Below, piece after piece: positions 1,427 to 30,373 of a stretch of DNA of 64,000 bases. Numbering within the stretch: the first letter of the stretch is position 1; each line of letters starts with the position of its first letter. Position numbers and translations under genes: made by a program. The stretch comes from a bacterium. GTDB taxonomy: Bacteria; UBA10199; 2-02-FULL-44-16; JAAZCA01. Where the stretch lies: the NCBI GenBank assembly GCA_963674695.2, contig CAXXGI010000003.1:800001-864000 (forward strand). Direction: 5' to 3'. The notes beneath the pieces are model-generated. The model was not told the DNA's origin. It ran no database searches and saw only the letters and a program-made list of their open reading frames with translations.

Positions 1427-1440
1427 GATACCTCCATGAT

Positions 1441-2443: not shown

Positions 2444-2569
2444 GAAAAACACCCCTTTCCGGTGAAGAAAGCGCTGAGCTTAAAGCACACCCCAGCGCCC
2501 AAAATCAAGCGTTTCCGGGGCGGCACAAGGAGCGAACCTGACGGCATTCGTTTGGCGGCATGAGGAATT

Positions 2570-4666: not shown

Positions 4667-4674
4667 ACCACCCC

Positions 4675-4702
4675 TTATCGTCGAACACCCTCAAAGGTTG
4701 CG
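4675..4702 (-). promoter_or_regulatory. sigma28 (FliA/WhiG)-like promoter
   Basis: Minus strand CGCAACCTTT-N10-GACGATAA, 8 nt before the ATG at 4666; identical spacing to two other copies in this window. Confidence 0.6.
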
Positions 4703-4790
4703 TCATTTGTAAAAAACCCTTTTCGCCATATCAACACGTCCATGACGTGACCACACTGTTCTCTTTTGAAAACGGTTTTTTCCAAATCAA

Positions 4791-4818
4791 CGCAACTTTT
4801 ACGGTGAGCATGCGATAT
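4791..4818 (+). promoter_or_regulatory. sigma28 (FliA/WhiG)-like promoter
   Basis: CGCAACTTTT-N10-TGCGATAT upstream of the ATG at 4847. Confidence 0.55.
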
Positions 4819-4846
4819 ACACATGCAACCAAACGCGAGGAGTCCC

Positions 4847-6109
4847 ATGTTTAAACTCAATATCATCGGCAACCCTCCCCCCACACAAGTGCCCACCGGT
4901 CTCCCTTTGGGACTCGAAAACATCGAAGCGAGCGACTCCGATGGCGCATTCGATAACACAGATTACATCGATATCGCAGCAGGAGGGGCAAGCTCATTTG
5001 AGTTTCAGGCCGAAACACAATCGCCACAGGCTATCATCGCGTCTCAAGTGCTCAAGAGCATCCGCAATGGCAGCGAAGCCCATGAAGCCCTTGCACTGAT
5101 GCCGAAATCAGGAGCAACGCCCGACGAAAACGTTACCGCCACGATAGAACGATTCATCCGTGATACCGAAGTGGAGGACGCAAAGACCCACGCGCGCGCA
5201 GAAGAGATTATCGAGTGGATGAAAGCGTTTTCCCAATCGATCGATCCCATCGCCGTTGGCTACAAGGGGACAACGTGGTGGAGCCGGTTCATTGGACGAA
5301 AGATCGATCCCGGCGACGTCCTTCGCGAAATCCTCCGGACCATCGACATCGAGGGACAAAACGGTGACGACGCCAAGACGTTCATCAGGCGATACACCGA
5401 CAGCCTCATCGCCAGAAGGGAAACCCTCCGGGAGCTCAAAGGGTCAATTGAAGAACGCGCCTTTCAGAACGCTGCCGTCACAGAACTTTTGAGTCGCATC
5501 AATAGGGGAATACGTGAGATGCAAGATGACCCTCTCAATGCCGACGATAATCGCCGACTCCAAGATGCACATGAGGAGGTCATCGCATGCCAGCTCGATC
5601 ACGGTGAATCGGCCACTCGCATCACGCAAAGCGCTTCCCGTACACAGCAGCTAATGCGCAAAATCAGCCAAGTCATCGACTCCAATAATCGAACCATAGC
5701 GACATTCGAGGCGATCATGCCCATCTTCCAGCAGTTGGTCGCACGCCTTCATAACCTCAACGAGAATGACAAACTGCTCCCGGCAACGAGTGCATTCCTG
5801 ACCATCGCTGTTCGTTCGAAGGGGAACCTGAAGGAGGAAGAAGCACTTCGGAGCATGTCGCCCGCCCACCCAATCATACACTACATTCAAAATCTCATCG
5901 GTGCAGCACAGCGTCTACAAGACGCCACCAACATCTTCGCCCAGTCCCATGAAGCGATGTCCAGGGCCTCACAAGAGAACCTCCCGAAACTCTCTCGCAT
6001 GATGACGATGCCGCACAAAACAAGCATACGCCTTGCCGACACGCACCCCACGAATGCAATCGGCACATCGAATCGAGCCACGCTTCCTGCGCCGAAGAAG
6101 AGAACGTAA
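4847..6109 (+). CDS. Coiled-coil protein resembling the TelA/KlaB toxic-anion-resistance family, with an acidic N-terminal leader
   Basis: RBS GAGGAG then ATG at 4847; IDP...KGTTWWSRFIGRK and QLMRKISQVIDSNNRTIATFEAIMPIFQQ recall TelA segments (LDP...GFLGKLFGK; QIRLIQNNN....IPLWK). Confidence 0.6.
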   Translation: MFKLNIIGNPPPTQVPTGLPLGLENIEASDSDGAFDNTDYIDIAAGGASSFEFQAETQSPQAIIASQVLKSIRNGSEAHEALALMPKSGATPDENVTATIERFIRDTEVEDAKTHARAEEIIEWMKAFSQSIDPIAVGYKGTTWWSRFIGRKIDPGDVLREILRTIDIEGQNGDDAKTFIRRYTDSLIARRETLRELKGSIEERAFQNAAVTELLSRINRGIREMQDDPLNADDNRRLQDAHEEVIACQLDHGESATRITQSASRTQQLMRKISQVIDSNNRTIATFEAIMPIFQQLVARLHNLNENDKLLPATSAFLTIAVRSKGNLKEEEALRSMSPAHPIIHYIQNLIGAAQRLQDATNIFAQSHEAMSRASQENLPKLSRMMTMPHKTSIRLADTHPTNAIGTSNRATLPAPKKRT

Positions 6110-6147
6110 ACGCACCAGATGAGGGGAGAATAACAAAGAGGAGACCC

Positions 6148-9100
6148 ATGTCATCGGTCATTCACCACATGACATCGCTGCCATTTGCATTGGCACCGGA
6201 CGCATCCGAGACGGATGTTGCCTTCGCGTATGCGGATGAAGCGATGGAGACAGAGGACTTCGACGCAAGCGCCTTTGTCGCGGAAGGTTCCGATGAAACC
6301 GGCATGGCGGCCTCGTCCTGGGGGTCCGAGTGGCATACGGCCACGCTTCTCAAAGAGAGTCCCGCATGGGTGAAAACGATCCCCCTCTCACGCAGAGACA
6401 TGACACCCGATGAGGGGGGACACCGGACAACAGCCGCATTCGCGCCGCCGCCGCCGAACACCGCGGTAAGACGAGCAAGCGAACAGGACGACAGAACCCT
6501 TCGGATGGTAATCAGAAATCTGATGGACGACTTCAATGTGCATACATCATCATCGATTGATATCAGGGGAAGAATCATTCACGCCCTCCCCTGGACTGAC
6601 GTTCGACCATTCTACATGGCCCTTCTTGTGCGAATCGCACAAGACCGTTACGATGGTTCGGCAGCTCAGTTCAAACAAGTCCTGCAATATGCCGGCTCTC
6701 ATTGGAAGCAGGAACGCCGCACCATCCTCGGTGCAGATACATTCGATTACAACGACGGTCACCCCCTCCCCTCCTCCGTCTTAGCAGATACAGACATCCA
6801 CCTCAACGTCAGGGATACGACCCAGCCATTCCTCGACGCCATCCTCCCACGTATTACGGACGATGATGCCATCGAACGGAAGCAAGCCATCACTGCCCTC
6901 ACGCTCATACTGGAATCTGCAGATGCGCACGGGGATAAATGCTGGCAAAGAACCATCATCAGCAGCATACGCGATTTCCGCCACAGCCAGGGTTTCCCCG
7001 CATCGCTCTTGGCGGATATTGCCATCCATGTGAGCCACCGTGATGCCATCGCACTCTTCACCGACATCATTTCCCCGCGCATGCATAGCAATGACCGCGC
7101 GTTACGAGAGGAAGCCTGCGCTGCCTTCACACGCGTGAAGAGACACGCCGACAAACACTGGCACCGGAATGACATCAAGCGCCTTGAGGGCGGCAACTCC
7201 ATTTCCAACAAACAGATCATTTCACCATCAGGAGATGCCACCTCCTCAAACGTCTCTATCAACATCGCCACCGTATTGAACGAGGCGGCCCCCATTGTAG
7301 AGGGAATGCTAAAAGAGAGCATGAGCATCACATCGGAGATCCACACATCCTTCACAAACGGCACTTCCGCCCACACCACACATATCACTCTCCATCCTCG
7401 ACACCCATCCCAAAAAGTGGATGCGCGGATTTCCGGGCCCGTCCGCACCCTCACAGATGCATCGCAGACCTCACGCCTCAACAACATCATTCCGCGCATC
7501 AACTGCGGCAATGCCAAGATTCAGCGTATAGCACGAGATGAGTTCCTAGGCGTATTGCAAGAGATGCATACGGAGGACAATCGAACGCACTCATGCGCCG
7601 CACTCACCCGTCTCCTCAATGAATCAAGCGATCTCCCCCGCGATTTTCTCATCCAGATCGCTGCGCTCGCACCAGAGGGAACGTTTGACAGCATCCTCTT
7701 TGGTTTCCTGAAGAAGAACATCGCTGCGCAATGGGACAAGAACGCACCCAGCCCCTTCCCCGACCAGATACCGGAAGGGAAGACGATCACCGCGATGATC
7801 GATATCGCCTTCGAACCGATCGAGGTGTATCGCTCATCGCTCAAGCAGCTCACCGATATTGTTTCGCGCGGACCGAAGGCAGCCGCAGAATTCGATTCAG
7901 TCCTCGATGAACACAACTTTTCACACCCACTCGACGGAATATATCTCGCAGAAAACCATACCCTCAAAAGGGCCTTCGCTGGATACCTCTCTCAAACAAG
8001 AGACACCTCATACGATGCATGGCACCCCCTTATGCAGATCAGCACGGAGGCTCGCCACAGCGTCCTCAAACCCCCTTTCCAACAAGCCCTGTCAACATTC
8101 GCCAAAAACAATACATCCCCTCACCTCATCCCCTTAAGTGTGCGACTCGCCCTTGAGCTCACCCCACGCACGCCGCATCTGACTCAATTGGCACATCACC
8201 TCTCTCACCAGCAGTGGGATGAGCTGGCCGGGCTTCTCCGGAACAGCATCCGTACGTTTGATGACACCGCACGCGATACCATCGCGGCCGAGTTTCTCCA
8301 TGCACACAATGATAGACACTTCAGCATGCCAAACCCATGCTATGCTGGCGCCCTCATCGCTGCGACACAAGCCGAGACACGCGCGAAGCTCTTGCGCATC
8401 CTCATCGAACGCCGGGCCTGGACAGAGATTCAGGAGCCCCTGAATCAGCTACGTGCAGCGGACACTCCGGATATTGACGACCTGAACGCGATCGTCCTGC
8501 AGGCCGCCAAGACGCAGACCGTTCCATTCGAACTCCTCGAGACCATTCCCGCTGCACACGAAGAATCCAAAAAGTGGCTCGACGCTGTCGGCTTTGGTCA
8601 GCAGGGCTCCGTCCACGAAGACCCCGTGCGATGGTATGAGATCAATACCGCGCAGGCCCTCATCGGATTCCTCGTCAAATGGACCTTCGCGCCCTCGATC
8701 GAATCGTCACCCCTGAGCCGTTTTCAGGCGCAGCGTGAGATGCGACGCGCCAAAACCACGCTCACAGAACTCGCGCTCGCCCATGCGCGCGGGGAAGGCC
8801 ACGGCGTCCTCACCATCCGCAATGTCGTGAATGCCCTGGCCAAATCGCTGGACCGTGATCCCGTCGGCGACCAGATCGAGGAGATCCTGGAGGGGGAGTC
8901 GAGCGAAGAGGCGCTTAAAACCCTGTTACGATCATCGCTGCCCACGCTCCTCATCGTCTGGCGCAAGCGCATGCAGGCGATGGCCTTCGACCCGCCGCTT
9001 CTTCACGAGGCTCCTCCTTCACCTCTGCGCCTCTTTACGGATGCGGCCAGCATTCGAAACAGAATGGACACGCTCGCAGCGGAGCAGGAAGAACCACTCG

Positions 9101-9393
9101 CACCGAACATCCTCTTTACAGAGGCCTGGATACGCATGCGCCATCCCGAGCGGACCGAGGGCTTCGAGGAGAGGGCAGCTCAACGCTTTACCACCGCACA
9201 TCAACTCCTCCAACGCCCCCTCGAACCGATCGGGGACGCGCAGAAAAACGCCGCCGCGCTCGCGATCATCGAGGGATTCAAGACCTTCCTCGATGCCGCA
9301 CAGGATGAGAAGGCCCTCGAAACCCTCGGCGATTTCCTCGGCCCAGAGGAAGCGGCACAGATATTGGCCGTCGCGAAGAAGTTTCAGCGATAG
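6148..9393 (+). CDS. Large alpha-helical orphan protein (1081 aa) with an acidic N-terminal leader and internal ~76-aa repeats
   Basis: Long ORF with GAGGAG RBS, 38 nt after the previous stop; no recognisable enzyme motif. Confidence 0.8.
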   Translation: MSSVIHHMTSLPFALAPDASETDVAFAYADEAMETEDFDASAFVAEGSDETGMAASSWGSEWHTATLLKESPAWVKTIPLSRRDMTPDEGGHRTTAAFAPPPPNTAVRRASEQDDRTLRMVIRNLMDDFNVHTSSSIDIRGRIIHALPWTDVRPFYMALLVRIAQDRYDGSAAQFKQVLQYAGSHWKQERRTILGADTFDYNDGHPLPSSVLADTDIHLNVRDTTQPFLDAILPRITDDDAIERKQAITALTLILESADAHGDKCWQRTIISSIRDFRHSQGFPASLLADIAIHVSHRDAIALFTDIISPRMHSNDRALREEACAAFTRVKRHADKHWHRNDIKRLEGGNSISNKQIISPSGDATSSNVSINIATVLNEAAPIVEGMLKESMSITSEIHTSFTNGTSAHTTHITLHPRHPSQKVDARISGPVRTLTDASQTSRLNNIIPRINCGNAKIQRIARDEFLGVLQEMHTEDNRTHSCAALTRLLNESSDLPRDFLIQIAALAPEGTFDSILFGFLKKNIAAQWDKNAPSPFPDQIPEGKTITAMIDIAFEPIEVYRSSLKQLTDIVSRGPKAAAEFDSVLDEHNFSHPLDGIYLAENHTLKRAFAGYLSQTRDTSYDAWHPLMQISTEARHSVLKPPFQQALSTFAKNNTSPHLIPLSVRLALELTPRTPHLTQLAHHLSHQQWDELAGLLRNSIRTFDDTARDTIAAEFLHAHNDRHFSMPNPCYAGALIAATQAETRAKLLRILIERRAWTEIQEPLNQLRAADTPDIDDLNAIVLQAAKTQTVPFELLETIPAAHEESKKWLDAVGFGQQGSVHEDPVRWYEINTAQALIGFLVKWTFAPSIESSPLSRFQAQREMRRAKTTLTELALAHARGEGHGVLTIRNVVNALAKSLDRDPVGDQIEEILEGESSEEALKTLLRSSLPTLLIVWRKRMQAMAFDPPLLHEAPPSPLRLFTDAASIRNRMDTLAAEQEEPLAPNILFTEAWIRMRHPERTEGFEERAAQRFTTAHQLLQRPLEPIGDAQKNAAALAIIEGFKTFLDAAQDEKALETLGDFLGPEEAAQILAVAKKFQR

Positions 9394-9634: not shown

Positions 9635-10666
9635 TCAGATTGTCGACTCGCCCGCGGCCAGCTGTCCGCAGGCGGCCAGTATCTCGGCACCGCGACTGAC
9701 ACGCACGTTGGTCTGAATGCCGCGATCGAAGAGGACCTGTGAGAAGCGCTCGATCGCCGCAGGCAGCGGAGCGTTGAGGTCGGACCCCGGGAAGGGATTG
9801 AAGGGAATGAGGTTCACCTTGGCCGGCACGCCATGGAGCAGCGCAACGAGTCGATTCGCATCGGCGACCGTGTCGTTGACACCGCCAATGAGGACATACT
9901 CGAATGTCACGCGATGCCGGGAATGTTCGGCGTAATCGCGGCAGAAGGCCATGATTTGAGCGATCGGATACTTCCGATTGATCGGCATGATCCGATCGCG
10001 CACCGCATCGGTCGTCGCATTCAGCGAAATAGCAATCTTAATCTCGTAGCGCAGGGGAAATGCCTCGAGCTCCGGGATGAGCCCCGCGGTCGAAAGCGTG
10101 ATGCGGCGTTTGGCGAGATTGAAGGCGCGATCGTCAATAAAGACTTCGATGGCATTGGTCACGGCCTCAGCGTTGGCCAACGGCTCCCCCATTCCCATGA
10201 GGACCACGTTGGTCACCCGCGCCGAGGAGCTGCGCATGATCGCGAGGAGCTGACCGAGAATCTCCCCTTGAGTCAGGTTGCGTTTAAACCCCATACGCGC
10301 CGTTCGACAGAAGGCACAATCCATCGCACAGCCCACCTGCGTGGAGAGGCATACGGTGATGCGATCCCCGTCGGCGGGGATGAGGACGCACTCGATGGCC
10401 TGGCCATCGCGCGTTCGACAGAGATACTTTTGCGTTCCATCAGCGGCCGAGAGCGTCTCCTCGAGCGCGATCGCATCGATCACGAAACGCTCCTCAAGCA
10501 GAGCGCGCGCATCCTTCGAGAGATTGGTCATCTCCGCAAAACTCGTCACGCGTCGCTCATAGAGCCACGCGATGATCTGACCCGCCGCAAAACGCTTGAG
10601 GCCAAGGTCTGCAACGACCAGGTCCGGCAATTCATTCAAGGGAATGTCAGTGATGGCTGGTTTCAT
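9635..10666 (-). CDS. rlmN: 23S rRNA m2A2503 / tRNA m2A37 radical-SAM methyltransferase
   Basis: CLSTQVGCAMDCAFC, MGMGEP, ISLNA, FEYVL, VNLIPFN and ILAACGQL motifs. Confidence 0.97.
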   Translation of the reverse strand: MKPAITDIPLNELPDLVVADLGLKRFAAGQIIAWLYERRVTSFAEMTNLSKDARALLEERFVIDAIALEETLSAADGTQKYLCRTRDGQAIECVLIPADGDRITVCLSTQVGCAMDCAFCRTARMGFKRNLTQGEILGQLLAIMRSSSARVTNVVLMGMGEPLANAEAVTNAIEVFIDDRAFNLAKRRITLSTAGLIPELEAFPLRYEIKIAISLNATTDAVRDRIMPINRKYPIAQIMAFCRDYAEHSRHRVTFEYVLIGGVNDTVADANRLVALLHGVPAKVNLIPFNPFPGSDLNAPLPAAIERFSQVLFDRGIQTNVRVSRGAEILAACGQLAAGESTI

Positions 10667-10704
10667 GGATGCTCGATTGAGAGTGATCGTTATAAAAAGC
10701 CGAC

Positions 10705-10756
10705 CTGGATCCCCGATTCAATCACTCCCGCCAAAGGCGGGCAAGCGGGGATGACA
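10705..10756. repeat. REP-like hairpin (GGATCCCC...GGGGATGACA) with a nested hairpin
   Basis: Same ends as the copies at 18409 and 40258. Confidence 0.8.
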
Positions 10757-10804
10757 ACACAAAAAGTACCTTGAACATTTCCCCAGGAGACGCCATGGCC
10801 CCTG

Positions 10805-10877
10805 CGCCGCGAGGGGAAATCAGATGCGTCTGGAACAAGCTTCACCTGTGAAGATGTATCTGATTTCCCCGGGAGGC
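10805..10877. repeat. Conserved-flank hairpin element, copy 1
   Basis: CGCCGCGAGGGGAAA-[self-complementary stem]-TTTCCCCGGGAGGC; flanks identical to the copy at 11658. Confidence 0.8.
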
Positions 10878-10908
10878 GCCCTGGCATTTGCGCCTCAGTG
10901 ACCCGGCT

Positions 10909-11601
10909 CTATTCCTCGGCAAAGATCGGCAACGTTGGGAGTTCGGTCACGCGTTTGACGCAGAGGCAATCGACTTGCGCGTGCGTCCCATCGGGGTCGA
11001 CGAGCACCGGCGTCATGCCGACTTTTCGCGCGCCGACGACATCGATCCGATAGAGGTCGCCCACATAGACGGAGCGCTCGGCTTGCACGCCCATCTGCTC
11101 CATCGCATGCCGAAAGATCCGCTCGTCCGGTTTGTCGAAGCCGACCTCGCCGGAATCGATGATGACGTCGAAGCGGTCGGTGATGCCGGCGTGTTCGATG
11201 AGCTGCTTGATCTGCCCCTCGGCATTGGAGATGACTCCGAGACGATAGTTTCGCCCACGCAACCAGTCGAGCATCTCGATGGTCCCTTCATCGCGACGCG
11301 ACCAGAAGAGGTGCGGCTCGGGATGCGTGCGCACGACTTCCGCAATGCGCAGGAAATACTCCTCCGCGATGCCAACGAACCGCATCCACCTACGATAGGC
11401 CTCGATCCAGAGCTCATGATGGTCGAGCTTCCCCACCGTGCCATCGCGCACGAGCGAACGCTTGGTCATATCATGGGCGCTGGCCAACCGCTCGACCGGG
11501 ATCGTCAGATCGAAGCGCTCGCGCAGAAGCCTCTGAAAAAAATCATAGTTGAAGAAGAAGAGCGTGTTGCCGATGTCGAAAAAGACCGCGTCGTACTGCA
11601 T
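10909..11601 (-). CDS. HAD-IA family hydrolase (phosphatase)
   Basis: FFDIGNTL, VISN, KPD and YVGD..D motifs; start MQYDAV after GGAGG. Confidence 0.93.
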   Translation of the reverse strand: MQYDAVFFDIGNTLFFFNYDFFQRLLRERFDLTIPVERLASAHDMTKRSLVRDGTVGKLDHHELWIEAYRRWMRFVGIAEEYFLRIAEVVRTHPEPHLFWSRRDEGTIEMLDWLRGRNYRLGVISNAEGQIKQLIEHAGITDRFDVIIDSGEVGFDKPDERIFRHAMEQMGVQAERSVYVGDLYRIDVVGARKVGMTPVLVDPDGTHAQVDCLCVKRVTELPTLPIFAEE

Positions 11602-11608
11602 GGAACCT

Positions 11609-11641
11609 CCGTAACTCGTAACTCGTAACTCGTAACTCGTA
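11609..11641. repeat. Heptamer tandem array, ~4.5 x TCGTAAC
   Basis: Directly visible; abuts the RBS of the HAD gene. Confidence 0.9.
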
Positions 11642-11657
11642 GAACCCATGATGGTGT

Positions 11658-11729
11658 CGCCGCGAGGGGAAAACCGAAACCATTTTTACAGGTTCATCGG
11701 AAAAATGGTTTCGGTTTTCCCCGGGAGGC
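11658..11729. repeat. Conserved-flank hairpin element, copy 2 (perfect 22-bp stem)
   Basis: GGGGAAAACCGAAACCATTTTT-13 nt-AAAAATGGTTTCGGTTTTCCCC within the same flanks as the copy at 10805. Confidence 0.85.
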
Positions 11730-11749
11730 AACCCGATATTCGCGCCGAT

Positions 11750-13096
11750 TCACGAGCAATAATCGGCCACCTCATCGACGAGTTCGTCGAGCAGGCCGAA
11801 GGTGTGGGCGACGTCGAGAATGGTGTACCTCCCTCGGATCGCCATTCCAAGGTGCAACGCGTCGCAAAATTCCTGACGAGAAATGCCCAGCTCGGAAAAA
11901 CGCGTCTTGGCCCCCGCCTGCATCAGGGCATCGCGCACCGCTGCCGCCGGCATGAGCATGGGCGAGAGCGTCGCGCGGATCGCGTCCCAGGAAGAGACGA
12001 GCCGATCACACCCGGCCTCGTAGCTCACCCGATCGGGACGCTTCTTTGCAAATTGCGCCAGGATCTCATCCGACTTTTCTCCGAAGAGAGCACGCACATC
12101 CTGACGAAGTTTCTCACCCCGCTCCCAGGCCGTGGCGAGCTGCTGCCGATCCACATCGGCAGCAGCCGTTTGCATCATCCGCTCATAGATAAAGGCCGAG
12201 GCGATGGAACCGATGCCCACCTGCGCCCCGTGAAAGTCGTGTGCGGTCCCGGCATGCACCCAGCGCATGTCGAGGAAGTGCGAGACGAGGTGTTCCGCAC
12301 CCGAGGCCGGCGACGAACTACCCGCGATGATCATCGACACACCCGAGAAGACGAGCGCTTCTGTCATCGCCCCGATCGCTCGTCGGTCGCGTCGTGCAAG
12401 CCCCGCCGAATCTCGAATGTAGAGCGGCTCCAGGTCGCGAATGAGGGCAAACGGCCGCGGGCAGAAGTGCTCGCCGGTGTGAATCGAGGAGAGCTTCCAA
12501 TCGGAATTGCAAAAGGGTTTGGAGAGCAGATCGCCGAGCCCTGCGCGGATCATCTCCATCGGCGCCGCACACAGGATGTCGGTGTCGGCGACGACCGCGA
12601 CAGCTGGTTGGATGGGGATGGAGGTCTTGAGCCCCTTGCTGATGATGGCGACGATAGAAGAGGCATAGCCGTTCATCGAGGGCGCGGTGGCGACGGCAAT
12701 CTGTGGCAGACCGTGGCGCGTCGCGGCGAACTTGCCCAAGTCGGTGATGCTGCCCGAGCCACAGGAGATGAGCACAGCATCGTCGGCGCGCACGCGCGCG
12801 GCGACCGCTTCGGCCGTCTCATCGTCGACGCGCGGACATCCCGACACGATCTCGACGCGAACGGCATGCCCCGCATCGCGAAGGATCGCTTCGAGGCGCT
12901 GGCCGGCGATACCGAAGGTGATCTCGTCGGCGAGCAACAAGATCGGCCCGCCCAGATGCAGTTGTTTCAGGAGATCGGGCGTGCGTGCGAGCGCACCCGG
13001 TTCGATGATCGCTTCGCGCACGGGAACGGTGTGTTCTCGACCACATTCGCACGTCCACGTCGAACCCAAAAGCGCATGTCTCTCATCTGTGGCCAT
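11750..13096 (-). CDS. sn-glycerol-1-phosphate dehydrogenase (bacterial AraM/EgsA type)
   Basis: CECGREH N-terminus, GSGSITDLGK, TAPSMNGY, AGLGD..K, SSPASGAEHLVSH, HGAQVG and RYTIL motifs. Confidence 0.9.
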   Translation of the reverse strand: MATDERHALLGSTWTCECGREHTVPVREAIIEPGALARTPDLLKQLHLGGPILLLADEITFGIAGQRLEAILRDAGHAVRVEIVSGCPRVDDETAEAVAARVRADDAVLISCGSGSITDLGKFAATRHGLPQIAVATAPSMNGYASSIVAIISKGLKTSIPIQPAVAVVADTDILCAAPMEMIRAGLGDLLSKPFCNSDWKLSSIHTGEHFCPRPFALIRDLEPLYIRDSAGLARRDRRAIGAMTEALVFSGVSMIIAGSSSPASGAEHLVSHFLDMRWVHAGTAHDFHGAQVGIGSIASAFIYERMMQTAAADVDRQQLATAWERGEKLRQDVRALFGEKSDEILAQFAKKRPDRVSYEAGCDRLVSSWDAIRATLSPMLMPAAAVRDALMQAGAKTRFSELGISRQEFCDALHLGMAIRGRYTILDVAHTFGLLDELVDEVADYCS

Positions 13097-13107
13097 CACC
13101 CTTCCCT

Positions 13108-16092
13108 TCAGATCTTTCCGGAACGAAGCGCTGCGAGCAGGCGCTCCAGGTGCACGTGATATTTTTGGGGCAACTTGACGAAGAGCTTGTCGGTCGAGTC
13201 CGCCTCGACATGTCGACGCGCAGCCGCGATGTAGTCATCGACCTTGAGCCCCAAACGTCGAATCGATGCGCTGTCGGCGCCCTCGCCGGAGAGCCGTGCA
13301 ACGGCCGCCTCACGATTCCAGTCCACCTGCGACAGAGAACGATAGACCATGCCGCGCACGTGGTGGGTGAGCGTCTTGGAACCGACCGCATACCCCAGGC
13401 GCCCCTCGGCGCGGGTGAGGTTGAAACGCGTTTCGCGCAAAACCGCAAGCTCCTTGAGCTCCTCCTGATCCTCGTCCCCCTCGTTCGAAGCCAAGCCCTG
13501 CCCGCCCACCGCCGCTCGAATCTCCGCGGGCAGATGGCGTCCCTCGATGCGATCGTTCCCCTCGAAGAGGGCGGCATCGAAGGCCTGATCGATGCTGCCG
13601 GAAAGTTCGCTCACGTTGTAGCGATCGAACCCGTATCGACTCAACGTACCGATCACCTCCGGCGCCATGGCGACCGTTCGATGATCCTGCCGATTGCGTC
13701 GCGCCAGGAAAAAGGCGGCCAGCCCCTCGATATCCTCCGGGCGCTGCGCGAGCGCCGGAACCCGCACCATGCCGCGCGACTGAATGCGACGCAGAAAATC
13801 CGCGCGCATGCGACCGGCATGCACGAGTTCCTCGAGCGGTTCGTTGGTGGCGAAGAGAAAGCGTGCGCTGGTTGTGCGCGGCGCCCCCCGCCCCGCCGCG
13901 GGATTGAACGGACGTCCCTCCAGCGGCAACAGGAGCAGCTGCTGCGCCTGCAGCGGGATGAGTTCGACCTCATCGAAGAAGAGCGTGCCCTGCGTATACT
14001 CCTCGAGAATGCCGCGCTGCCCCTTGGCATCGATCCCGTGCAGACCGCTGCCGGCGCCATAGCCGAAGAGTTTTCCCAAGACCACGAGCGGATCGCCGGA
14101 GGCAAACTCGGCACAGTTGAACTCGCCAAAGGGTTTGTCCTGGCGGGAACTCAGCGCATGGATGCTGCGCGCGATCCCGGTCTTTCCCGAACCGGTGGGA
14201 CCCAAAACGACCACCGGCTCGCGATCGCTGGCGCGAATAGCGGCATCGCGCAGACAACGGAGCCAGGCCGGCGAAGAACCGATGGCGATCGTGTGGCGCA
14301 GATGCCCAAATGCGGGATGATCCGCTTCCATGCCGGTCAGGCGCCCGGCCAGCTCTTCCGTCACGGCAGGGTCATACGATTCTCGGCTCGGCAACGGCAC
14401 CCGGTCCTTGAGCTCGACCAGGCGCTCCTTCTGCGCCATCTCGCGCCCGAGGCGTTCGATCGATTCGGCCACCGGCCGAATCTCACCGTCGGCGCCTTCG
14501 ACCGTGACCGCATCCCCTTCGCGCAGACTCTCGACGGCATGCGAGAGCACATCGAGCGGACGCGCAAAGCGACGGCGCACGAACCAGGCGGCAAAGCCGG
14601 CGATGGCCAGCGCACAGACCAGGGCGATCATCTGCATCAGCACCGCACGGCCAACGGCGTTTGAAACCGGCGCAAAGGAGATGCCCACCTCGAGCGTGGC
14701 CCGTCGACGCCCGCCGACGACGATCGGATCGAGAACGGTGACGACATCGGGCATGAAGCGTTCATAGGCATGGGCCCGCACCGCATCGAGCACCGTTGCC
14801 CCTACCTCGCCCGCGCGATCGGAGGCGACGATGCGCCCATCCTGCACGACGCGCGCCCAGGCGACCGCATCGTCCTGCACCGCCTGCACAATGATCGGAT
14901 CGACCCCCTCGGAAGAGGCGCCCGCCATGGCGGCGACCAGGCGCAGGTTGAGGTTTTCCAGATCGCCCACCTTGCCCGCGGCATAGGTGTCGATCGAGCC
15001 GGAAAGCAGCGCCAGCCCATAGGCCGTCATCACCACGATCAGGAGCAGCACCCCCGCGCCCACGGCCACGCCAACAGCACCGGCCAGCCGGCGACGGATG
15101 AACAACCCCACGGCCACGAGCAGGATGACGACCACCAGCACCGATCCCACCATCCAGACCCGAGCGCGACGCTTGGCCAGATCGACGCGTTCGTCGAAGA
15201 TGGCCGGAATGCGCCGGTAGGGGATGGCCGTGTGCAGGATCGGCAGCGTTTTGGATGCGTCGGCATAACGCCGAATGGCATCGAAGGCCGATTCGGGCTG
15301 TACCACAAAACGTCCCACCTCGGTGATGCGCCGCAGATCGGCGGGCACCTCCGCTTCATAGGAGAGAAAGGCCTGCCGCAGGCGCGCCTTCATCTCGGGG
15401 GAGAGCGAGGTGCGCACCGTGATCGGGCCCATCGGAATGGGATCGGACTGCGCCACGACCCGGAGGGATGTGCGCTGCGCCTCATCGAGCAGAGCGACGA
15501 AGAAGTCGCCAACCGCCGCGGCATCGACCGCCCCCTCCATCACCGCGTCCAAGGAGCGATCGTGGGAACCGGTCAGGACGATGCGACGGAAGAAGGCACC
15601 GGGATCGGTCACTCCGGCCTGCGCGATCATCGTCCGGGGCAGGAGGTATCCCGAGGTGGAGAGCGCATCGGTCAGGGCCAGCGAGCGCGACTGCAGGTCT
15701 TCGATGCCCTGGGCATCGTCGTCGGCGCGAACGACGATGACGCTCCGATAGGTCGGACTGCCCCGGCGTTCCTCGCCGACGAGGATCTCGGCCCCGCCCG
15801 CGGCGATGGCCTCCACGTGCGTGAGTGCGCCGCCCTCGAAGAGATCGATCTCTCCGCTTCGAAGGGCACCGATGAGGTCCTGATAATTTTCGCGCAGGAC
15901 CATCTCGACCGGGCGACCGATCGCACGCGAGAGATAGTCCACCAGCGGAATCCACTGGCGAACCACCGCTGCCGGACTGCGGCCGCCGACAAACCCCATG
16001 CGCACGGCATCGTCGGCACAGATGCCTGCTCGCGCACTGAAAAATGCGCTTGTGATGAGAGCCCCTACGAGAATTTTCTTCAAGCATCGCAT
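13108..16092 (-). CDS. Fusion: signal peptide - PhnD-like phosphate/phosphonate-binding domain - TM helices/HAMP - AAA+ sigma54-type enhancer-binding domain - HTH
   Basis: YRSVIVVR, D..STSGYLLP, GSHD and VDAAAV (PhnD family); several TM segments; Walker A GPTGSGKT, NCA, LFG, Walker B LFFDEVE, ATN, RADFLRRI. The start at 16092 yields a signal peptide. Confidence 0.88.
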   Translation of the reverse strand: MRCLKKILVGALITSAFFSARAGICADDAVRMGFVGGRSPAAVVRQWIPLVDYLSRAIGRPVEMVLRENYQDLIGALRSGEIDLFEGGALTHVEAIAAGGAEILVGEERRGSPTYRSVIVVRADDDAQGIEDLQSRSLALTDALSTSGYLLPRTMIAQAGVTDPGAFFRRIVLTGSHDRSLDAVMEGAVDAAAVGDFFVALLDEAQRTSLRVVAQSDPIPMGPITVRTSLSPEMKARLRQAFLSYEAEVPADLRRITEVGRFVVQPESAFDAIRRYADASKTLPILHTAIPYRRIPAIFDERVDLAKRRARVWMVGSVLVVVILLVAVGLFIRRRLAGAVGVAVGAGVLLLIVVMTAYGLALLSGSIDTYAAGKVGDLENLNLRLVAAMAGASSEGVDPIIVQAVQDDAVAWARVVQDGRIVASDRAGEVGATVLDAVRAHAYERFMPDVVTVLDPIVVGGRRRATLEVGISFAPVSNAVGRAVLMQMIALVCALAIAGFAAWFVRRRFARPLDVLSHAVESLREGDAVTVEGADGEIRPVAESIERLGREMAQKERLVELKDRVPLPSRESYDPAVTEELAGRLTGMEADHPAFGHLRHTIAIGSSPAWLRCLRDAAIRASDREPVVVLGPTGSGKTGIARSIHALSSRQDKPFGEFNCAEFASGDPLVVLGKLFGYGAGSGLHGIDAKGQRGILEEYTQGTLFFDEVELIPLQAQQLLLLPLEGRPFNPAAGRGAPRTTSARFLFATNEPLEELVHAGRMRADFLRRIQSRGMVRVPALAQRPEDIEGLAAFFLARRNRQDHRTVAMAPEVIGTLSRYGFDRYNVSELSGSIDQAFDAALFEGNDRIEGRHLPAEIRAAVGGQGLASNEGDEDQEELKELAVLRETRFNLTRAEGRLGYAVGSKTLTHHVRGMVYRSLSQVDWNREAAVARLSGEGADSASIRRLGLKVDDYIAAARRHVEADSTDKLFVKLPQKYHVHLERLLAALRSGKI

Positions 16093-16163
16093 GAGAGCGC
16101 CTTCGTAACCGTCACCAGGGGCATTGTCAACGACAGCGCGTCGCAGAACGCAATCCCACAGCC

Positions 16164-16270
16164 GATGCCACGGTTTTGCCATCCCTTCCCACACCGCCCC
16201 TTCGAAGGAATTTGGAAATGCCATTATAATTCAAGCGATTAGAAACGACTCCCTTGGCCCGCCCCTTGCA
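16164..16270 (+). promoter_or_regulatory. sigma54 promoter module for the MFS transporter: candidate UAS, IHF site and -24/-12 element
   Basis: TGGCCCG-CCCC-TTGCA at 16255-16270 (GG-N10-GC); ATTCAAGCGATTA at 16229-16241 (1 mismatch to WATCAANNNNTTR); imperfect palindrome GATGCCA-N6-TGCCATC at 16164-16183. Confidence 0.75.
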
Positions 16271-16317
16271 ATAGTGCCGGGCAACAAAACCCTTAACCGC
16301 AGACGACAGGAGCCTTC

Positions 16318-17637
16318 ATGTCCCCCACTCGATCCTATCGCTATTGGCGCTGGCGCATGTTCCTCGGCATGTATGCGGGGTATGTGATCTATTACTTCAC
16401 GCGCAAGAATCTCGCGCCGGTCCTGCCGCTCTTCAGCAAAGAGCTCGGCATCTCCCTCATGGATCTGGGGATCCTGGGCAGCATCTTCTATGTGACCTAC
16501 GGCGTGGGAAAATTCATCAGCGGCTTGCTCGCCGATCGCTCCTCGATTCGCCTCTTCATGCCGGCGGGGCTCGCACTCGCCTCGATCACAAACATCCTCT
16601 TCTCCACGACCGAAACGCTCTGGCTGCTGGCCCTCCTCTGGGGACTCAACGGCGCCTTTCAGTCGATGGGGTTTCCGCCCGTGGCCAAGGGGCTGACCTC
16701 CTGGTTCAGCGCCAGCGAACGCGCGACCAAGTGGACGCTCTGGTCGAGCTCGCACACCGCCGGGACCTTTCTCATCGGAATCCTCGCGGCCGCCCTGATG
16801 CAGCACTATGGCTGGCGCAGCGCCTTTCTCGTCCCGGGCGTGCTGGGGCTCATCACCGCCGTACTGCTCTTCTTCACGCTGCGCGATCGGCCGCAATCGA
16901 TCGGCATGCCCTCCATTGAAACCTATCGCAACGACCCGGCCCCGGTGCAGGTTCCTGCGCACCTGACCCATTGGCAGATCCTGCGACGCTACGTCTTCGG
17001 GAACAGCTCGATCTGGTTGCTCTGTCTGGCCTACATCTTCGTCTATCTCATCCGTTTCGGCACGCTGGATTGGTCGACCAAGTTTCTCTACGACGTCCGC
17101 GGTATCGAACCCGTGCGCGTCGCCCTCATCTGGTCGCTCATGCCGCTGTTTGGCATGCCCGGCGGCATCGTCGCGGGCTGGATCGCCGACCGTTTCTTCC
17201 ATGGCCGCTGCGTCCCGATCACGATCATCTATCTGGTCCTGTTGGCGGCGAGCATCCTCGGCTTCTATCGTTTCGCCGGGCCCCAGAACATCGCCCTCAC
17301 CTGCGTCTTTCTCGCCGCCATCGGTTTCTTCGTCGACGGCCCGCAGAACCTCGTGGGGGGCGTGCAGGTCTCGCGCATCACCGCCCCGCAGGCCGTCTCG
17401 GCCGCCTGCGGACTGACGGGACTCTTCGGCTATATCGGCGCCATGCTCTCGGGCGTGGGCCTGGCCGCCATCACCGATGCCGCCGGATGGGCCGCGATGT
17501 TCGGGACCTGTATCATCAGCTGCGGCATCGCCGCCCTCCTGGTCAGCCTCACCTGGCGAGCGGAGCGCACACAGCAGCGAGAGCAATCGGCAGAACCAAC
17601 CCGCCTCGAACCCGCAATTGCGGAGAGCGGTATCTGA
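16318..17637 (+). CDS. MFS organophosphate:Pi antiporter (OPA family; UhpC/GlpT/PgtP-like)
   Basis: YRYWRW...GY..YYFTRK, YGVGKF.SG.LADR, FQSMG.PP, WF...ER....W..SH, RDRPQSIG and G.TGLFGY.G motifs; 12-TM pattern. Confidence 0.92.
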   Translation: MSPTRSYRYWRWRMFLGMYAGYVIYYFTRKNLAPVLPLFSKELGISLMDLGILGSIFYVTYGVGKFISGLLADRSSIRLFMPAGLALASITNILFSTTETLWLLALLWGLNGAFQSMGFPPVAKGLTSWFSASERATKWTLWSSSHTAGTFLIGILAAALMQHYGWRSAFLVPGVLGLITAVLLFFTLRDRPQSIGMPSIETYRNDPAPVQVPAHLTHWQILRRYVFGNSSIWLLCLAYIFVYLIRFGTLDWSTKFLYDVRGIEPVRVALIWSLMPLFGMPGGIVAGWIADRFFHGRCVPITIIYLVLLAASILGFYRFAGPQNIALTCVFLAAIGFFVDGPQNLVGGVQVSRITAPQAVSAACGLTGLFGYIGAMLSGVGLAAITDAAGWAAMFGTCIISCGIAALLVSLTWRAERTQQREQSAEPTRLEPAIAESGI

Positions 17638-17665
17638 CAGCCACTATCAGAAAGGAACCCTCATC

Positions 17666-18406
17666 ATGGAAATAACCCCCTATCGCATTCCGTATGACAT
17701 CGACTATTTTCTCGATGGCTTCTGCAATGGGAGCGATCTGTTCAGCGACGTCTACGGCACGTCGGTGACGATGCTGCTCTCGGATCGCCGCTCCGCCTAT
17801 TTTTGTCCTGAAAAGCTCAAGGGCAGCTGGCGCATCTATGTCGATGCCAGCGGCACCGAACACCTGATCATACCGCCTGGAAAGCGCGACTCCCGGCCAA
17901 ATCACATCCTCGCATGGCCGCGTGCGCAGGACGTGCTCGCCTGTGGCGCCACAGCGCTGCCGCAGATATCGGTCGAACTCCGGAGTCGCAGCGCATATAA
18001 ACGACACCCAACGACGTCCTCGCCGGCCGTCCCACCCTTCGTCATCGAGCAAAAGCGGGAGAAGGGATGGTCCTTCCGCATCGACGCCCAAGGCGTTCAA
18101 TTCACTTCCGGATCGACGCGCTATATGTTTTCCACCGAGGACATCGCGCTGCAGGAACGTATCTGGGAGGATTGCACCTATGACTATGAACTTGGCCACG
18201 AATTCTGCACGACGCACCTCGGCGTCTTCACCCCGTACGCATCCGACCTGAGTCCCTTCATCGCCATCCTCGAAGAGGCCCGAGCGCAGGGCGATCCGGC
18301 CCAGGCCTCGAGCTTCGACTTCGCCATCGCGACGATCATGCAGTCGATGGAGAAACTCGCGGAGATCGACACCTTCGAACGGGCGTGTGGGGAGATCAAA
18401 GAATAG
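17666..18406 (+). CDS. Hypothetical protein (246 aa)
   Basis: AAGGA RBS and ATG 28 nt after the MFS stop; host-like codon usage; no motif recognised. Confidence 0.65.
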   Translation: MEITPYRIPYDIDYFLDGFCNGSDLFSDVYGTSVTMLLSDRRSAYFCPEKLKGSWRIYVDASGTEHLIIPPGKRDSRPNHILAWPRAQDVLACGATALPQISVELRSRSAYKRHPTTSSPAVPPFVIEQKREKGWSFRIDAQGVQFTSGSTRYMFSTEDIALQERIWEDCTYDYELGHEFCTTHLGVFTPYASDLSPFIAILEEARAQGDPAQASSFDFAIATIMQSMEKLAEIDTFERACGEIKE

Positions 18407-18408
18407 GG

Positions 18409-18465
18409 CTGGATCCCCGATTACCCCCTCGGGGATGACAGACTCTCGTGCCCTCGGGGATGACA
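18409..18465. repeat. REP-like hairpin plus a half copy (…TCGGGGATGACA x2) between convergent genes
   Basis: CTGGATCCCCGA-loop-TCGGGGATGACA followed by CCCTCGGGGATGACA. Confidence 0.8.
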
Positions 18466-18467
18466 GC

Positions 18468-20126
18468 TCAGGACAGTTCGCGGGCGATCTCGACGATGCG
18501 CACGAGTTTGGCGTTGATCGTGCGAAACTGGCTCATGAGATCGAGGTGAATGGAGCTGGTATCGAAGCTCTCGCGCATCTTGTCGTGCAAGCGCATCAGG
18601 TGCGACTGCCGAAGCTCCAGTTCCACCTCATTGAGGTGATGGTCATGACGGATGACCTTGAGCGCAATATCCTCGTGAGGATGCGTGAGCATCGAGATGG
18701 TCAAATCGAAGTTCTGCAAGACCAGTTCGTGCAGATGTTTGATCTCCACCCAGCCTTCGTCGGAAAAACGCGTCCATTTCTTCCGCTTCTTGTGCGCCAG
18801 GAGAATGACTTCCTTGGAGATGACGTCGCCGATATCCTCGAGCTCTCCGGCGATCATGAGGAGCGAGACCTGCTGGATGGACTGCGATTCATTGAGCATC
18901 TTCTGTGAAATCTTCGCGAGATAGAAACGCACCGCTTTTTCGAGCAGATCGATCTTGTCGTCGGCGCTGGCCGTCTTCTCGGCGAGTCGGTCGATCTCCT
19001 CCTCATCCTTAAAGAGATCGAGCACGTGGGCAAACATCTCGTGCGCAATCTGCGCGATGCGCATCACCTCGCGCCGCACCTGGGCGAAGGCGAGCGCCGG
19101 CGTTGGCAGCGCCGCATCCTCCAGATACTTCGGCCGAAACGCCTCTTTCCGATGCGCCTGTTGCGGAACGATCTTTTTCACCATCCAGACAACGACGTTG
19201 GTGAACGGGAGGAAGAGCACCACCAGAAAGAGGTTGAACAGCAGATGGGAGAGCGCGATCTCGCCGCTGGTGCTCAGGTGCATCCACGTCATATCCGTCG
19301 AGAGATGCGCGTTGAACTGCATGATGAACTGCGCGATCTCACCGAGGAAGGGAAAGACGATCATCGCGCCGACGATCTTCATGAGCACGTGCGCCACCGC
19401 CACGCGCCGCCCCTCGACCCCCACCCCGAAACAGGCCAGCCCCGCGGTGATGCACGTACCGATGTTCGCGCCAAGGACGATGGGGAGTGCGGCCTCGAAC
19501 GTGATGGTACCCGAGAAGGAGAGCGCGATGGCCAGACCGATGGTGGCGGCCGAGGCCTGCACGATGCCAGTGAAAACCGTGGCGAAGATGAGATTGGCCA
19601 GGGGATTTTTCGCGAGGAATGTAAACGCCTGCATCGCCGCAGGGCTCTCGCGCAGGGGCACCGCCGCGGCCGACATCAGGTACATGCCGAAGAAGATCAT
19701 GCCAAAGCCGAGCACGATCGAACCGATGTAGCGCATCTTCTGGCTGCGCCCCAGGTGCGAGAGCAGCATTCCACCCGCGACGAGATAGAGCGCATAGCTC
19801 GTGATCTTTTGGAAGGAGAGCAGGACCACCACCAGCGTCGTGCCCACGCCGGCGCCCAGGATGACGCCGATGGCCTGCACGAGCGTGAGCAGCTGCGTCT
19901 CGACAAAACTCACGAGTAAGACGGTCGTCGCGCTCGAACTCTGCAGCATGACGGTGATGGACGCGCCGAGCCCCAGCGCGAAGAGGCGATTCTGCGTGAG
20001 CCTTCCCATCAAGGCGCGCAACCGCTCGCCGGCGGCCAGCTGCAGCCCCTGGCGCGCTGAGGTCAGTCCGAAGAAGAAAAAAGCCAATCCGCCGATCATC
20101 GATGCCCAGCCAAAACTCACATCCAT
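18468..20126 (-). CDS. Na+/Pi cotransporter family protein with C-terminal PhoU-like domain
   Basis: LQSSSATT...ILGA.VGTT and VQASAAT...VLGANIGT repeats; ELEDIGD and TSSIHLD motifs. Confidence 0.93.
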   Translation of the reverse strand: MDVSFGWASMIGGLAFFFFGLTSARQGLQLAAGERLRALMGRLTQNRLFALGLGASITVMLQSSSATTVLLVSFVETQLLTLVQAIGVILGAGVGTTLVVVLLSFQKITSYALYLVAGGMLLSHLGRSQKMRYIGSIVLGFGMIFFGMYLMSAAAVPLRESPAAMQAFTFLAKNPLANLIFATVFTGIVQASAATIGLAIALSFSGTITFEAALPIVLGANIGTCITAGLACFGVGVEGRRVAVAHVLMKIVGAMIVFPFLGEIAQFIMQFNAHLSTDMTWMHLSTSGEIALSHLLFNLFLVVLFLPFTNVVVWMVKKIVPQQAHRKEAFRPKYLEDAALPTPALAFAQVRREVMRIAQIAHEMFAHVLDLFKDEEEIDRLAEKTASADDKIDLLEKAVRFYLAKISQKMLNESQSIQQVSLLMIAGELEDIGDVISKEVILLAHKKRKKWTRFSDEGWVEIKHLHELVLQNFDLTISMLTHPHEDIALKVIRHDHHLNEVELELRQSHLMRLHDKMRESFDTSSIHLDLMSQFRTINAKLVRIVEIARELS

Positions 20127-20345
20127 CGGGAAACTCCTGCGTTATAAGCGGTGAGGGCGAAGAATAGCACTGCCCCTCTCCGATGAAAAGGATGAGGTCG
20201 CAAATGCCCTCAATACCTCGCCCACACCCCCTTTTTAACCGTTTCTGAACAGATTTAACCTAATCCAAACTGGTTCAAACCCCCAATCATTTTGTACACA
20301 TAGCTCATCACGGCTGACAATGATTCAGCACTTTTCGCTCAAGAG

Positions 20346-23261: not shown

Positions 23262-23273
23262 GGAGCATCCTTC

Positions 23274-23897: not shown

Positions 23898-23979
23898 GTA
23901 TTTCCGTTGGACAATGACATTCTTGCACTCCCCTTTTTGTTCGGTGTAGGCTCTCCACCACCAAACAGGGAGATATCTG

Positions 23980-30353: not shown

Positions 30354-30373
30354 GGAATGCCGTTGAAATATCG

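Follow-up and report, generated by a model that had tools for sequence, protein, structure and literature searches.

In the UhpABC-UhpT and PgtABC-PgtP systems, an external organophosphate sensed at the membrane induces a transporter of the organophosphate:phosphate antiporter (OPA) family, and the task is split between three proteins, of which the sensor resembles a transporter, the second is a histidine kinase and the third is a response regulator of the sigma-70 type. Membrane-bound one-component activators are represented by ToxR and CadC, which have one transmembrane (TM) helix and winged-helix domains that activate sigma-70 transcription. A third arrangement is that of AioX-AioS-AioR and ArxXSR, described in PMC5908839 and PMC8050422, in which a PF12974 binding protein signals through a membrane sensor to an AAA+ activator, and this activator binds ahead of an RpoN promoter. 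For kinases that carry a PF12974 domain, tetrathionate and thiosulfate are the proposed signals (PMC5408782). Here we describe a locus in a 64,000-nucleotide stretch of bacterial DNA (contig CAXXGI010000003.1, positions 800,001 to 864,000; hereafter the window) in which a gene for a 994-amino-acid (aa) protein, combining a binding domain and an AAA+ activator domain in a single chain, lies divergent from a gene for an OPA-type transporter. On balance, this protein is probably a membrane-integral one-component sigma-54 activator that senses an outside solute and switches on the transporter.

Domain architecture of the sensor-activator

The protein (P0001) is organized, from its N-terminus, as a signal peptide, a PhnD/PtxB/ArrX-like domain, a TM hairpin, a module of ~120 residues, a third TM segment, a HAMP domain, a helical linker, an AAA+ domain and a helix-turn-helix (HTH)-like C-terminus. 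Pfam searches placed Phosphonate-bd (PF12974) at residues 33-251 (E 1e-57, 195.6 bits against a cut-off of 27), Sigma54_activat (PF00158) at residues 604-771 (E 7.5e-30, 104 bits against a cut-off of 20) and AAA_lid_14 (PF25601) at residues 783-861. The Pfam HAMP match at residues 504-549 was weak (E 0.0018, 19 bits against a cut-off of 25) and was accepted because homologues and the kinase relative P0094 have a strong HAMP at the aligned position; in P0094 the domain scores E 1e-17, and its alignment with P0001 spans that stretch. HisKA, HATPase_c and Response_reg gave no Pfam match in the activator at E <= 0.01. A first-pass annotation of this DNA had proposed a one-chain transmembrane sensor-activator with neither kinase nor receiver, and this is borne out by the domain searches and by homologues of the same architecture. 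No membrane-integral or PhnD-fused sigma-54 activator was described in the literature searched, which included the available text of PMC4641369 and PMC3162934 and covered subscription journals thinly; within the same coverage, the architecture is, as the first-pass annotation had supposed, absent from characterized systems.

Hydropathy analysis gave four hydrophobic segments, at residues 7-25, ~312-332, ~339-363 and ~483-505. The loop between TM1 and TM2 is strongly basic across all subfamilies in the alignment. In the AlphaFold model of the activator (mean pLDDT 85.5), the second module consists of helices at 394-406 and 434-439 and strands at 412-424 and 450-472. The PhnD-like domain and the module at residues 364-482 were placed outside because this is the sole topology that keeps the AAA+ domain cytoplasmic; the binding domain and the small module would accordingly be extracytoplasmic, with the HAMP and AAA+ parts inside. 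The open reading frame (ORF) of the activator occupies 13108-16224(-) and encodes 1038 aa. The 994-aa form, which begins at ATG 16092, was favored because all aligned members start at or near the hydrophobic N-terminus (21-homologue alignment).

Homologues and origin of the fusion

A word-indexed search returned 36 non-self matches, 22 of which share the architecture (PF12974 plus PF00158). These 22 homologues are 950-1085 aa long, apart from one 719-aa fragment, are 33-53% identical to the window protein and are all unnamed or auto-named. The family alignment of 21 members comprises P0001 and 20 of the 22, the truncated P0006 and the fragment P0012 having been left out. An exhaustive profile search of 1.84 billion 50%-identity clusters recovered 14 full-length representatives of the same architecture. 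The fusion thus represents a genuine family, rare and so far confined to uncultured organisms. That an error of assembly or gene calling merged a binding-protein gene with an activator gene, a misassembly that the first-pass annotation had named as grounds for rejecting its reading, is exceedingly improbable: the frame is open over 994 codons, the architecture recurs in 22 proteins of several sources, in a full-length copy at the related locus L005 and in the 14 representatives, and the TM and HAMP middle of the protein is conserved and common to kinase relatives.

Relatives of each half of the protein were taken from the best 150 representatives of the exhaustive profile search. Two are kinases, P0094 (782 aa) and P0111 (784 aa), with Phosphonate-bd, HAMP and HATPase_c domains, and HisKA as well in P0094; five (P0024, P0045, P0046, P0048 and P0055; 600-625 aa) have Response_reg followed by the AAA+ domain. 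Window residues 49-554 align with kinase P0094 (28% identity, E 3e-37) over the binding domain, every TM segment, the second outside module and HAMP, and residues 575-994 align with the receiver-type activator P0045 (35% identity, E 1e-74) over the linker helix, the AAA+ domain, the HTH-like region and the C-terminal motif. Since the two halves match a PhnD-type kinase and a receiver-type activator, a two-component pair has apparently collapsed into one chain. On this view, the sensor half of a PhnD-type kinase would have become joined to the output half of the cognate activator, and the domains of the phosphorelay would have been lost. The separate homology of the halves to P0094 and P0045 is consistent with the phosphorylation-free equivalent of a phosphorelay envisaged in the first-pass annotation, and the kinase-type and receiver-type relatives make this an unusually clear case of a two-component system becoming one component.

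Transporter linkage, promoter and upstream elements

The window transporter matches MFS_1 in Pfam (E 4e-52). Its NCBIfam scores all fall below the respective cut-offs (bits/cut-off: the OPA family TIGR00881 334.7/407.75, UhpC 340/564, GlpT 276/633, PgtP 215/750, UhpT 188/497). Context was compared with eight related loci (L001-L008). Linkage of homologous fusions to OPA transporters, which had been set as a check on the idea, was found in three of the six PhnD-type loci (the window and L001-L005): an OPA-like transporter adjoins the activator in the window, L002 and L003. The L002 transporter is accompanied by a sugar-phosphatase-like HAD and that of L003 by a glucose-6-phosphate isomerase behind a sigma-54 promoter; the transporters of the window and L003 are 68% identical and the activators 36%. 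Behind the activator in L006 and L008, both dCache-type, come genes for a purple-acid-phosphatase-like protein and a TonB receptor, and further neighbors are an OPA transporter in L006 and a glycerophosphodiesterase in L008.

The sigma-54 pattern TGGC-N7-TTGCW occurs once in the window, 47 nt upstream of the transporter ATG at 16318, and is the near-consensus -24/-12 element that the first-pass annotation had seen upstream of the antiporter gene. About 1.1 such matches are expected by chance per 64 kb; the match gains weight because of its position before the transporter ATG and its recurrence in relatives. Three of the eight related loci have strict matches next to the activator gene: L003, L005 (twice) and L007. 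The 61,962 bp of the loci contain four strict matches against 0.67 expected, a count reached in 1 of 500 shuffles, and all four are intergenic and oriented toward neighboring genes. The L003 promoter precedes an isomerase-transporter operon, and a looser second element there (CTGC at -12) faces the opposite way. One promoter lies on either side of the activator gene in L005, and the promoter in L007 precedes a TonB-receptor-like gene. No match was found in L001, L002 or L004, whose flanks are short or cut. A minus-strand sigma-54 promoter for the activator's own cluster was not found with the same pattern.

An unbiased 7-mer search, allowing one mismatch on both strands, was carried out on seven promoter-upstream regions. 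TCACACA/TCCCACA were the top-ranked 7-mers, with at least two copies in six of the seven regions; none of 200 shuffles reached six. The window and each L005 promoter have two copies of TC(A/C)CAC, L007 has four, L006 three and L008 two; the background rate is 0-1.8 per kb, with 0.61 per kb for the window, and four control intergenic regions have no copy. The shared boxes sit 60-130 bp upstream of the promoters. Those of the window are 33 bp apart and precede the -24 GG by 101 and 68 bp; in L003, two TTCCTAC repeats take their place. The palindrome at 16164-16183, which the first-pass annotation had singled out as the upstream element, is imperfect (7-nt arms matching at 6 of 7 positions), was not returned by a repeat search and lies between the two boxes; judged by conservation, the flanking TCCCAC boxes, rather than the palindrome, are the likely enhancer. 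The IHF-like site that it had also reported is present with one mismatch, but 20 such sites occur across the window (0.31 per kb). Upstream of the dCache-type activator gene of L008, at ~6260-6520, a ~40-bp unit (…AACTAAATGACAACTTACAACGGCGAAACGGCAATTTACAT…) is repeated in tandem about five times.

AAA+ domain and C-terminal region

The AAA+ domain aligns with ZraR 1ojl (E 1.8e-28, PDB sequence search), and its fold matches NtrC1 and FlrC (Foldseek, target TM-score 0.90). The Walker A motif GPTGSGKT at 631, the Walker B motif FFDEV at 705 and the sensor and arginine residues are intact in the alignment, and K637, D707, E708, N750, R763, R768 and R769 are invariant among the 21 members. In NtrC1 and DctD, a helical linker before the AAA+ domain restrains it, and by analogy the linker here could hold the AAA+ domain off. 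Protein-atlas matches were to generic HAMP or sigma-54 clusters (score 0.80) and serve as a lead only.

The signature GAFTGA loop is absent from all 21 aligned members, which carry FGYGxx[S/C]G[I/L]xG instead. HMMER aligns ZraR 'ekga-ftga' with 'gagsglhgi', giving a one-residue insertion and Leu/Ile at the Phe position, and the adjacent loop is also altered, with the family-specific sequence LLLLPLEGRPFNPAAG. The first-pass annotation had called this an AAA+ activator domain; fold and catalytic residues agree with it, but it had overlooked the missing GAFTGA loop. A similar loop, LFG[YFIVL]Gxx[SHT]G[LIV]xN[IV]P, is found in the receiver-type and in many ~850-aa transmembrane relatives. Another branch with the same C-terminal domain retains ELFGHEKGSFTGA, and canonical GSFTGA occurs in 4 of the 22 sequences listed among 43 ~850-aa relatives. 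The inputs of these 43 are CHASE2 in 30, PDZ_6 in nine and dCache_1 in one, and HTH_8 was found in one of them. More widely, ~850-aa transmembrane activators (P0049-P0064, P0105-P0175) combine CHASE2, PDZ or dCache inputs with the same Pfam-less C-terminal domain; among the papers listed in a literature search, none dealt with CHASE2 and sigma-54 together.

No HTH family, HTH_8 included, matched the activator in Pfam at E <= 0.01. The C-terminal region has the family motifs LGYxxGSKTLTxHxRG and LPQKYH in the alignment and helices at 876-887, 892-899 and 906-922 in the AlphaFold model. The HMMER alignment with ZraR extends partially into the C-terminal region of that protein, which we take to be a Fis-type HTH, and the same C-terminal domain is found in CHASE2- and receiver-type activators.

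Should the AAA+ domain be unable to activate sigma-54 for want of GAFTGA, the protein would be a sigma-70-type activator or repressor, or a non-transcriptional ATPase, and the -24/-12 element would be served by another activator or be due to chance. TyrR and Rhodobacter capsulatus NtrC are precedents for such proteins working without sigma-54 activation. This alternative is favored by the replacement of both the L1 and L2 loops in 21 of 21 members and by the lack of a Pfam HTH_8, and the promoter pattern is itself expected about once per window by chance. We nevertheless consider it quite improbable. Canonical -24/-12 elements stand beside three of eight independent loci as well as in the window, in an excess over expectation (four against 0.67), which agrees with the promoter link drawn in the first-pass annotation; the shared boxes stand at enhancer distance ahead of each canonical promoter; a search of 10600-18600 gave no sigma-70-like promoter; the residues of the ATPase site are preserved; and some relatives that share the C-terminal domain have a canonical GSFTGA. 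GAFTGA is regarded as the hallmark of contact between enhancer-binding proteins and sigma-54. A conserved clade that lacks it beside textbook -24/-12 promoters is noteworthy and would reveal either a second route to sigma-54 or a new role for the AAA+ module.

Sensor domain and candidate signal

The sensor scores 169.6 bits with TIGR01098, the phosphate/phosphite/phosphonate binding-protein subfamily, above the cut-off of 112, and 172.1 bits with the equivalog for PhnD proper, TIGR03431, below the cut-off of 261.1. No phnCE genes adjoin the activator among the window genes. The PDB sequence search matched PtxB 5lv1 (5e-26) and ArrX 6x6b (9e-25), and Foldseek matched the fold to ArrX and AioX (target TM-score 0.86-0.90). 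Residues Y70, S145, G148, Y149 and D190 are conserved in 21 of 21 members, H177 and S/T147 in 20 and T146 in 18; the Ser-x-Ser, His and Tyr positions of oxyanion binding are among them. The motifs STSGY and GSHD, which are conserved, align with PtxB and ArrX. The phosph(on)ate side of the PhnD and AioX pockets is composed of two Ser, one His and two Tyr, as given in the available text of PMC5908839, and a residue-by-residue mapping of STSGY/GSHD onto the published pockets is suggested by the alignment. The signal appears to be a phosphorus-containing solute and is most likely the organophosphate that the transporter imports; a phosphate ester matching the transporter was favored because of the gene context. 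This organophosphate may be sn-glycerol-1-phosphate from lipoteichoic acid, phosphatidylglycerol head groups or archaeal lipids.

The same machine could instead respond to an inorganic oxyanion (phosphate, phosphite, phosphonate, arsenate or a sulfur oxyanion) and serve as a phosphorus-scavenging or oxyanion-response switch. The top sequence and fold matches, PtxB (phosphite), ArrX (arsenate), AioX (arsenite) and PhnD, point this way, as do the tetrathionate and thiosulfate proposed for PF12974-kinases in the text of PMC5408782 available. The genes of L006 and L008 (acid-phosphatase-like, TonB receptor, glycerophosphodiesterase and OPA transporter) resemble a phosphate-scavenging set, and the window locus lies among genes for Na/Pi-PhoU, pyrophosphatase, PhoB and PhoR. 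Phosphate limitation, however, is already served by that separate PhoB/PhoR pair 6 kb off, and the sensor in L006 and L008 is dCache, not PhnD-like. The PhnD-type loci have ester-specific neighbors (glucose-6-phosphate isomerase, sugar-phosphatase-like HAD, glycerol-1-phosphate dehydrogenase (G1PDH)-like gene), and none of the nine loci showed genes for arsenic, phosphite oxidation or sulfur oxyanions nearby. We judge an oxyanion signal the less likely reading, though a serious competitor, and retain the imported organophosphate as the preferred one.

Proposed mechanism

In the proposed mechanism, the solute would close the tethered binding domain, which would then act on the membrane-proximal module much as AioX, a free binding protein, acts on the kinase AioS. 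HAMP and the linker helix would transmit the change and free the AAA+ domains for assembly. The C-terminal domain would anchor the assembly on the TCCCAC boxes (16154-16192), a DNA bend at the IHF-like site would deliver it to sigma-54 polymerase at 16255-16270, and ATP hydrolysis would open the promoter of the transporter gene and of a 245-aa gene beyond it. The model also poses a mechanical question, namely how a ring-forming ATPase could be brought together with enhancer DNA and polymerase at the membrane. Combined, these proposals would describe a clade that has swapped both sigma-54-facing loops and yet fires canonical -24/-12 promoters from the membrane, that deleted kinase and receiver from a PhnD-type pair so that an external organophosphate drives ATP-dependent opening without phosphotransfer, and whose regulon is an OPA importer plus a family of unknown fold; that the whole of this holds together is tentative and rather doubtful. 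Once the ligand is known, one gene and a 225-bp promoter would make a possible compact sensor for an extracellular phosphorus compound.

Besides the replaced loops and the chance expectation for the promoter pattern, several points weigh against sigma-54 activation from the membrane in response to an organophosphate. A membrane-tethered chain forming a ring on DNA is a step left unexplained, and AlphaFold draws TM1 and TM2 as long helices with no hairpin. The closest solved relatives of the sensor bind inorganic oxyanions (phosphite, arsenate, arsenite), not phosphate esters. The elements in L006 and L008 have the correct spacing but GT, not GC, at -12 and were counted as uncertain, and L001 and L004 have neither OPA transporter nor promoter in their short flanks. 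No rpoN was seen among the genes of the 64-kb window, the stretch covered here. The seven regions of the box search were hand-chosen, two of them from one locus, and the eight related loci derive from one genome-contig scan of metagenome-assembled genomes.

Neighboring genes and candidate regulon

The conserved 245-aa protein encoded behind the transporter shows 28-30% identity to the products of two genes in L005 (E 8.5e-29 and 7.9e-19). Both of these, at 372-1175(-) and 4682-5506(+), lie directly behind sigma-54 promoters with TCACAC boxes, and because of this homology to both genes behind the L005 promoters the 245-aa protein was taken as a core regulon member. Its gene is probably co-transcribed with the transporter. 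The protein has no Pfam or NCBIfam match and one further database copy, named 'hypothetical'. It contains invariant Cys residues and an N-terminal YxIPYDxD...GxCxGxDL motif. Its structural model has a pLDDT of 66 and no PDB fold match at E <= 0.001; Polo-box domains, the top matches, were rejected as its fold, the TM-score of ~0.16 being meaningless.

The dehydrogenase-like gene on the activator strand begins 11 nt (ATG 13096) or 8 nt (GTG 13099) after the activator stop, the ATG start giving the 11-nt spacing reported in the first-pass annotation for a G1P-dehydrogenase-like gene followed by HAD. The product matches PF13685 (E 2e-29) and, below the cut-off of 413, the G1PDH equivalog NF002022 (199.5 bits, 281 of 449 residues covered). 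Its best PDB match is the G1PDH 9h4x (1.1e-38), and it has 938 homologues, the named ones being called G1PDH by NCBI or JGI. The HAD protein matches PF00702 (E 2e-20), with REG-2-like and YjjG-like matches below cut-off. The canonical first HAD motif is DxDxT; this protein reads FFDIGNT at the expected position, Gly replacing the usual second Asp, which hints at a non-standard phosphatase subgroup. Control of a G1P locus, also part of the first-pass annotation, found no support: dehydrogenase and HAD lie downstream on the activator strand with no sigma-54 promoter found, and neither gene is conserved beside relatives. Terminator-like sites number 6 in 10600-18600 against 5.3 in shuffles; because they are no commoner than in shuffles, the operon ends are undefined.

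Table 1. Coordinates of the sensor-activator, its parts, the adjacent genes and the regulatory elements in the window
Feature	Position	Strand	Basis
Activator gene P0001	13108-16092	(-)	ORF and translation, Pfam/NCBIfam domains, 22 same-architecture homologues, AlphaFold
Signal peptide, residues 1-24	16021-16092	(-)	Hydrophobic 7-25, N-terminus hydrophobic in homologues; predicted cleavage
Extracytoplasmic PhnD/PtxB/ArrX-like binding domain, residues ~33-290	15223-15996	(-)	PF12974, TIGR01098, PDB and Foldseek matches
TM1, short Arg-rich loop RRRLAG, TM2 hairpin, residues ~312-363	15004-15159	(-)	Hydropathy; predicted topology
Second extracytoplasmic alpha/beta module, residues ~364-482	14647-15003	(-)	AlphaFold, conserved in family and P0094
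TM3 (~483-505) and HAMP (504-549)	14446-14646	(-)	Hydropathy, Pfam HAMP below cut-off
AAA+ sigma-54-interaction domain and lid, residues 604-861	13510-14283	(-)	PF00158, PF25601, ZraR 1ojl, Foldseek
Non-canonical L1 loop FGYGAGSGLHGID, residues 676-688	14029-14067	(-)	Position of GAFTGA
C-terminal HTH-like DNA-binding domain (predicted), residues ~875-994	13111-13470	(-)	Conservation, partial ZraR alignment, model helices
Fe-ADH_2, glycerol-1-phosphate-dehydrogenase-like protein, 448-449 aa	11750-13096/13099	(-)	PF13685
HAD-family hydrolase, 246 aa	10909-11649	(-)	PF00702; final gene of activator-strand cluster
OPA-family-like MFS transporter (UhpC/PgtP/GlpT relatives), 439 aa	16318-17637	(+)	MFS_1; divergent from activator
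Conserved 245-aa protein	17669-18406	(+)	Homology to two L005 genes
Sigma-54 -24/-12 promoter (predicted) TGGCCCGCCCCTTGCA	16255-16270	(+)	Motif match
Two direct TCCCAC boxes, likely enhancer (upstream activating sequence)	16154-16159 and 16187-16192	(+)	7-mer search
IHF-like site ATTCAAGCGATTA	16229-16241	(+)	One mismatch to WATCAANNNNTTR; consensus evidence only

Genomic surroundings

Phosphate-related genes are found nearby, at 18468-26105. The first, at 18468-20126(-), encodes a Na/Pi cotransporter with PhoU domains fused to it; the others encode a pyrophosphatase-like protein (23274-23897), PhoB (23980-24669) and a kinase resembling PhoR/PnpS (24666-26105). Many long ORFs at 281-9393, 20346-23261 and 28665-34488 have no match in Pfam (E <= 1e-5) or NCBIfam (E <= 1e-20), including those at 6148-9393 (1081 aa), 20346-23261 (971 aa) and 2570-4666 (698 aa); this abundance of family-less ORFs suggests a poorly sampled lineage. 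A low-GC patch at 37539-39242(-) (GC 0.45 against ~0.58 elsewhere; GC at third codon positions, GC3, 0.38) encodes an AAA_15/AAA_21 ATPase whose family takes its name from AbiEii-type systems; this DNA may have been acquired or may serve in defence. An ordinary cluster of ribosomal-protein and translation-factor genes at 44273-62731 (S4, adenylate kinase, SecY, L6, L5, S3, L2, L4, L3, EF-Tu, EF-G, S7) indicates that the window is chromosomal.

Comparison with known systems

The proposed system follows the logic of UhpABC-UhpT and PgtABC-PgtP, and the best NCBIfam matches of its transporter are UhpC, PgtP and GlpT. It departs from them in having one chain, a PhnD-type sensor, no kinase or receiver and a sigma-54 promoter. 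With AioX-AioS-AioR, as that system appears in the available text of the reports cited above, it has in common a PF12974-type sensor, an AAA+ activator and an RpoN-type promoter, and ArrX and AioX are the best fold matches of its sensor. Unlike that three-protein phosphotransfer system, it has a tethered binding domain and a substituted GAFTGA loop, it lacks kinase and receiver, and its gene surroundings relate to organophosphate, not to arsenic. TtrS and ThsS (PMC5408782) likewise have a PhnD-like PF12974 domain fused into a transmembrane signaling protein, but they respond to sulfur oxyanions and signal through a histidine kinase to a separate regulator. The window protein is outside all two-component families.

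As in ToxR and CadC, one membrane-spanning chain would sense outside and, by prediction, bind DNA inside with no phosphorelay; the output here differs in being an AAA+ sigma-54 module powered by ATP, and the chain has three TM helices. The AAA+ fold, the catalytic residues and the arrangement of upstream enhancer and -24/-12 promoter are those of NtrC1, ZraR, PspF and DctD. These canonical enhancer-binding proteins are soluble and have GAFTGA and a Fis-type HTH_8, whereas the window protein is membrane-integral, has FGYGxxSG(I/L)xG for GAFTGA and ends in a longer C-terminal domain with no Pfam model. Among enhancer-binding proteins it is set apart by the absence of GAFTGA from its sequence. 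Its nearest counterparts in output are the CHASE2-, dCache- and receiver-type activators, many of them also transmembrane, which share the AAA+ domain and the C-terminal module with LP(Q/K/R)(K/D)Y(H/R) and differ from it in their input domain.

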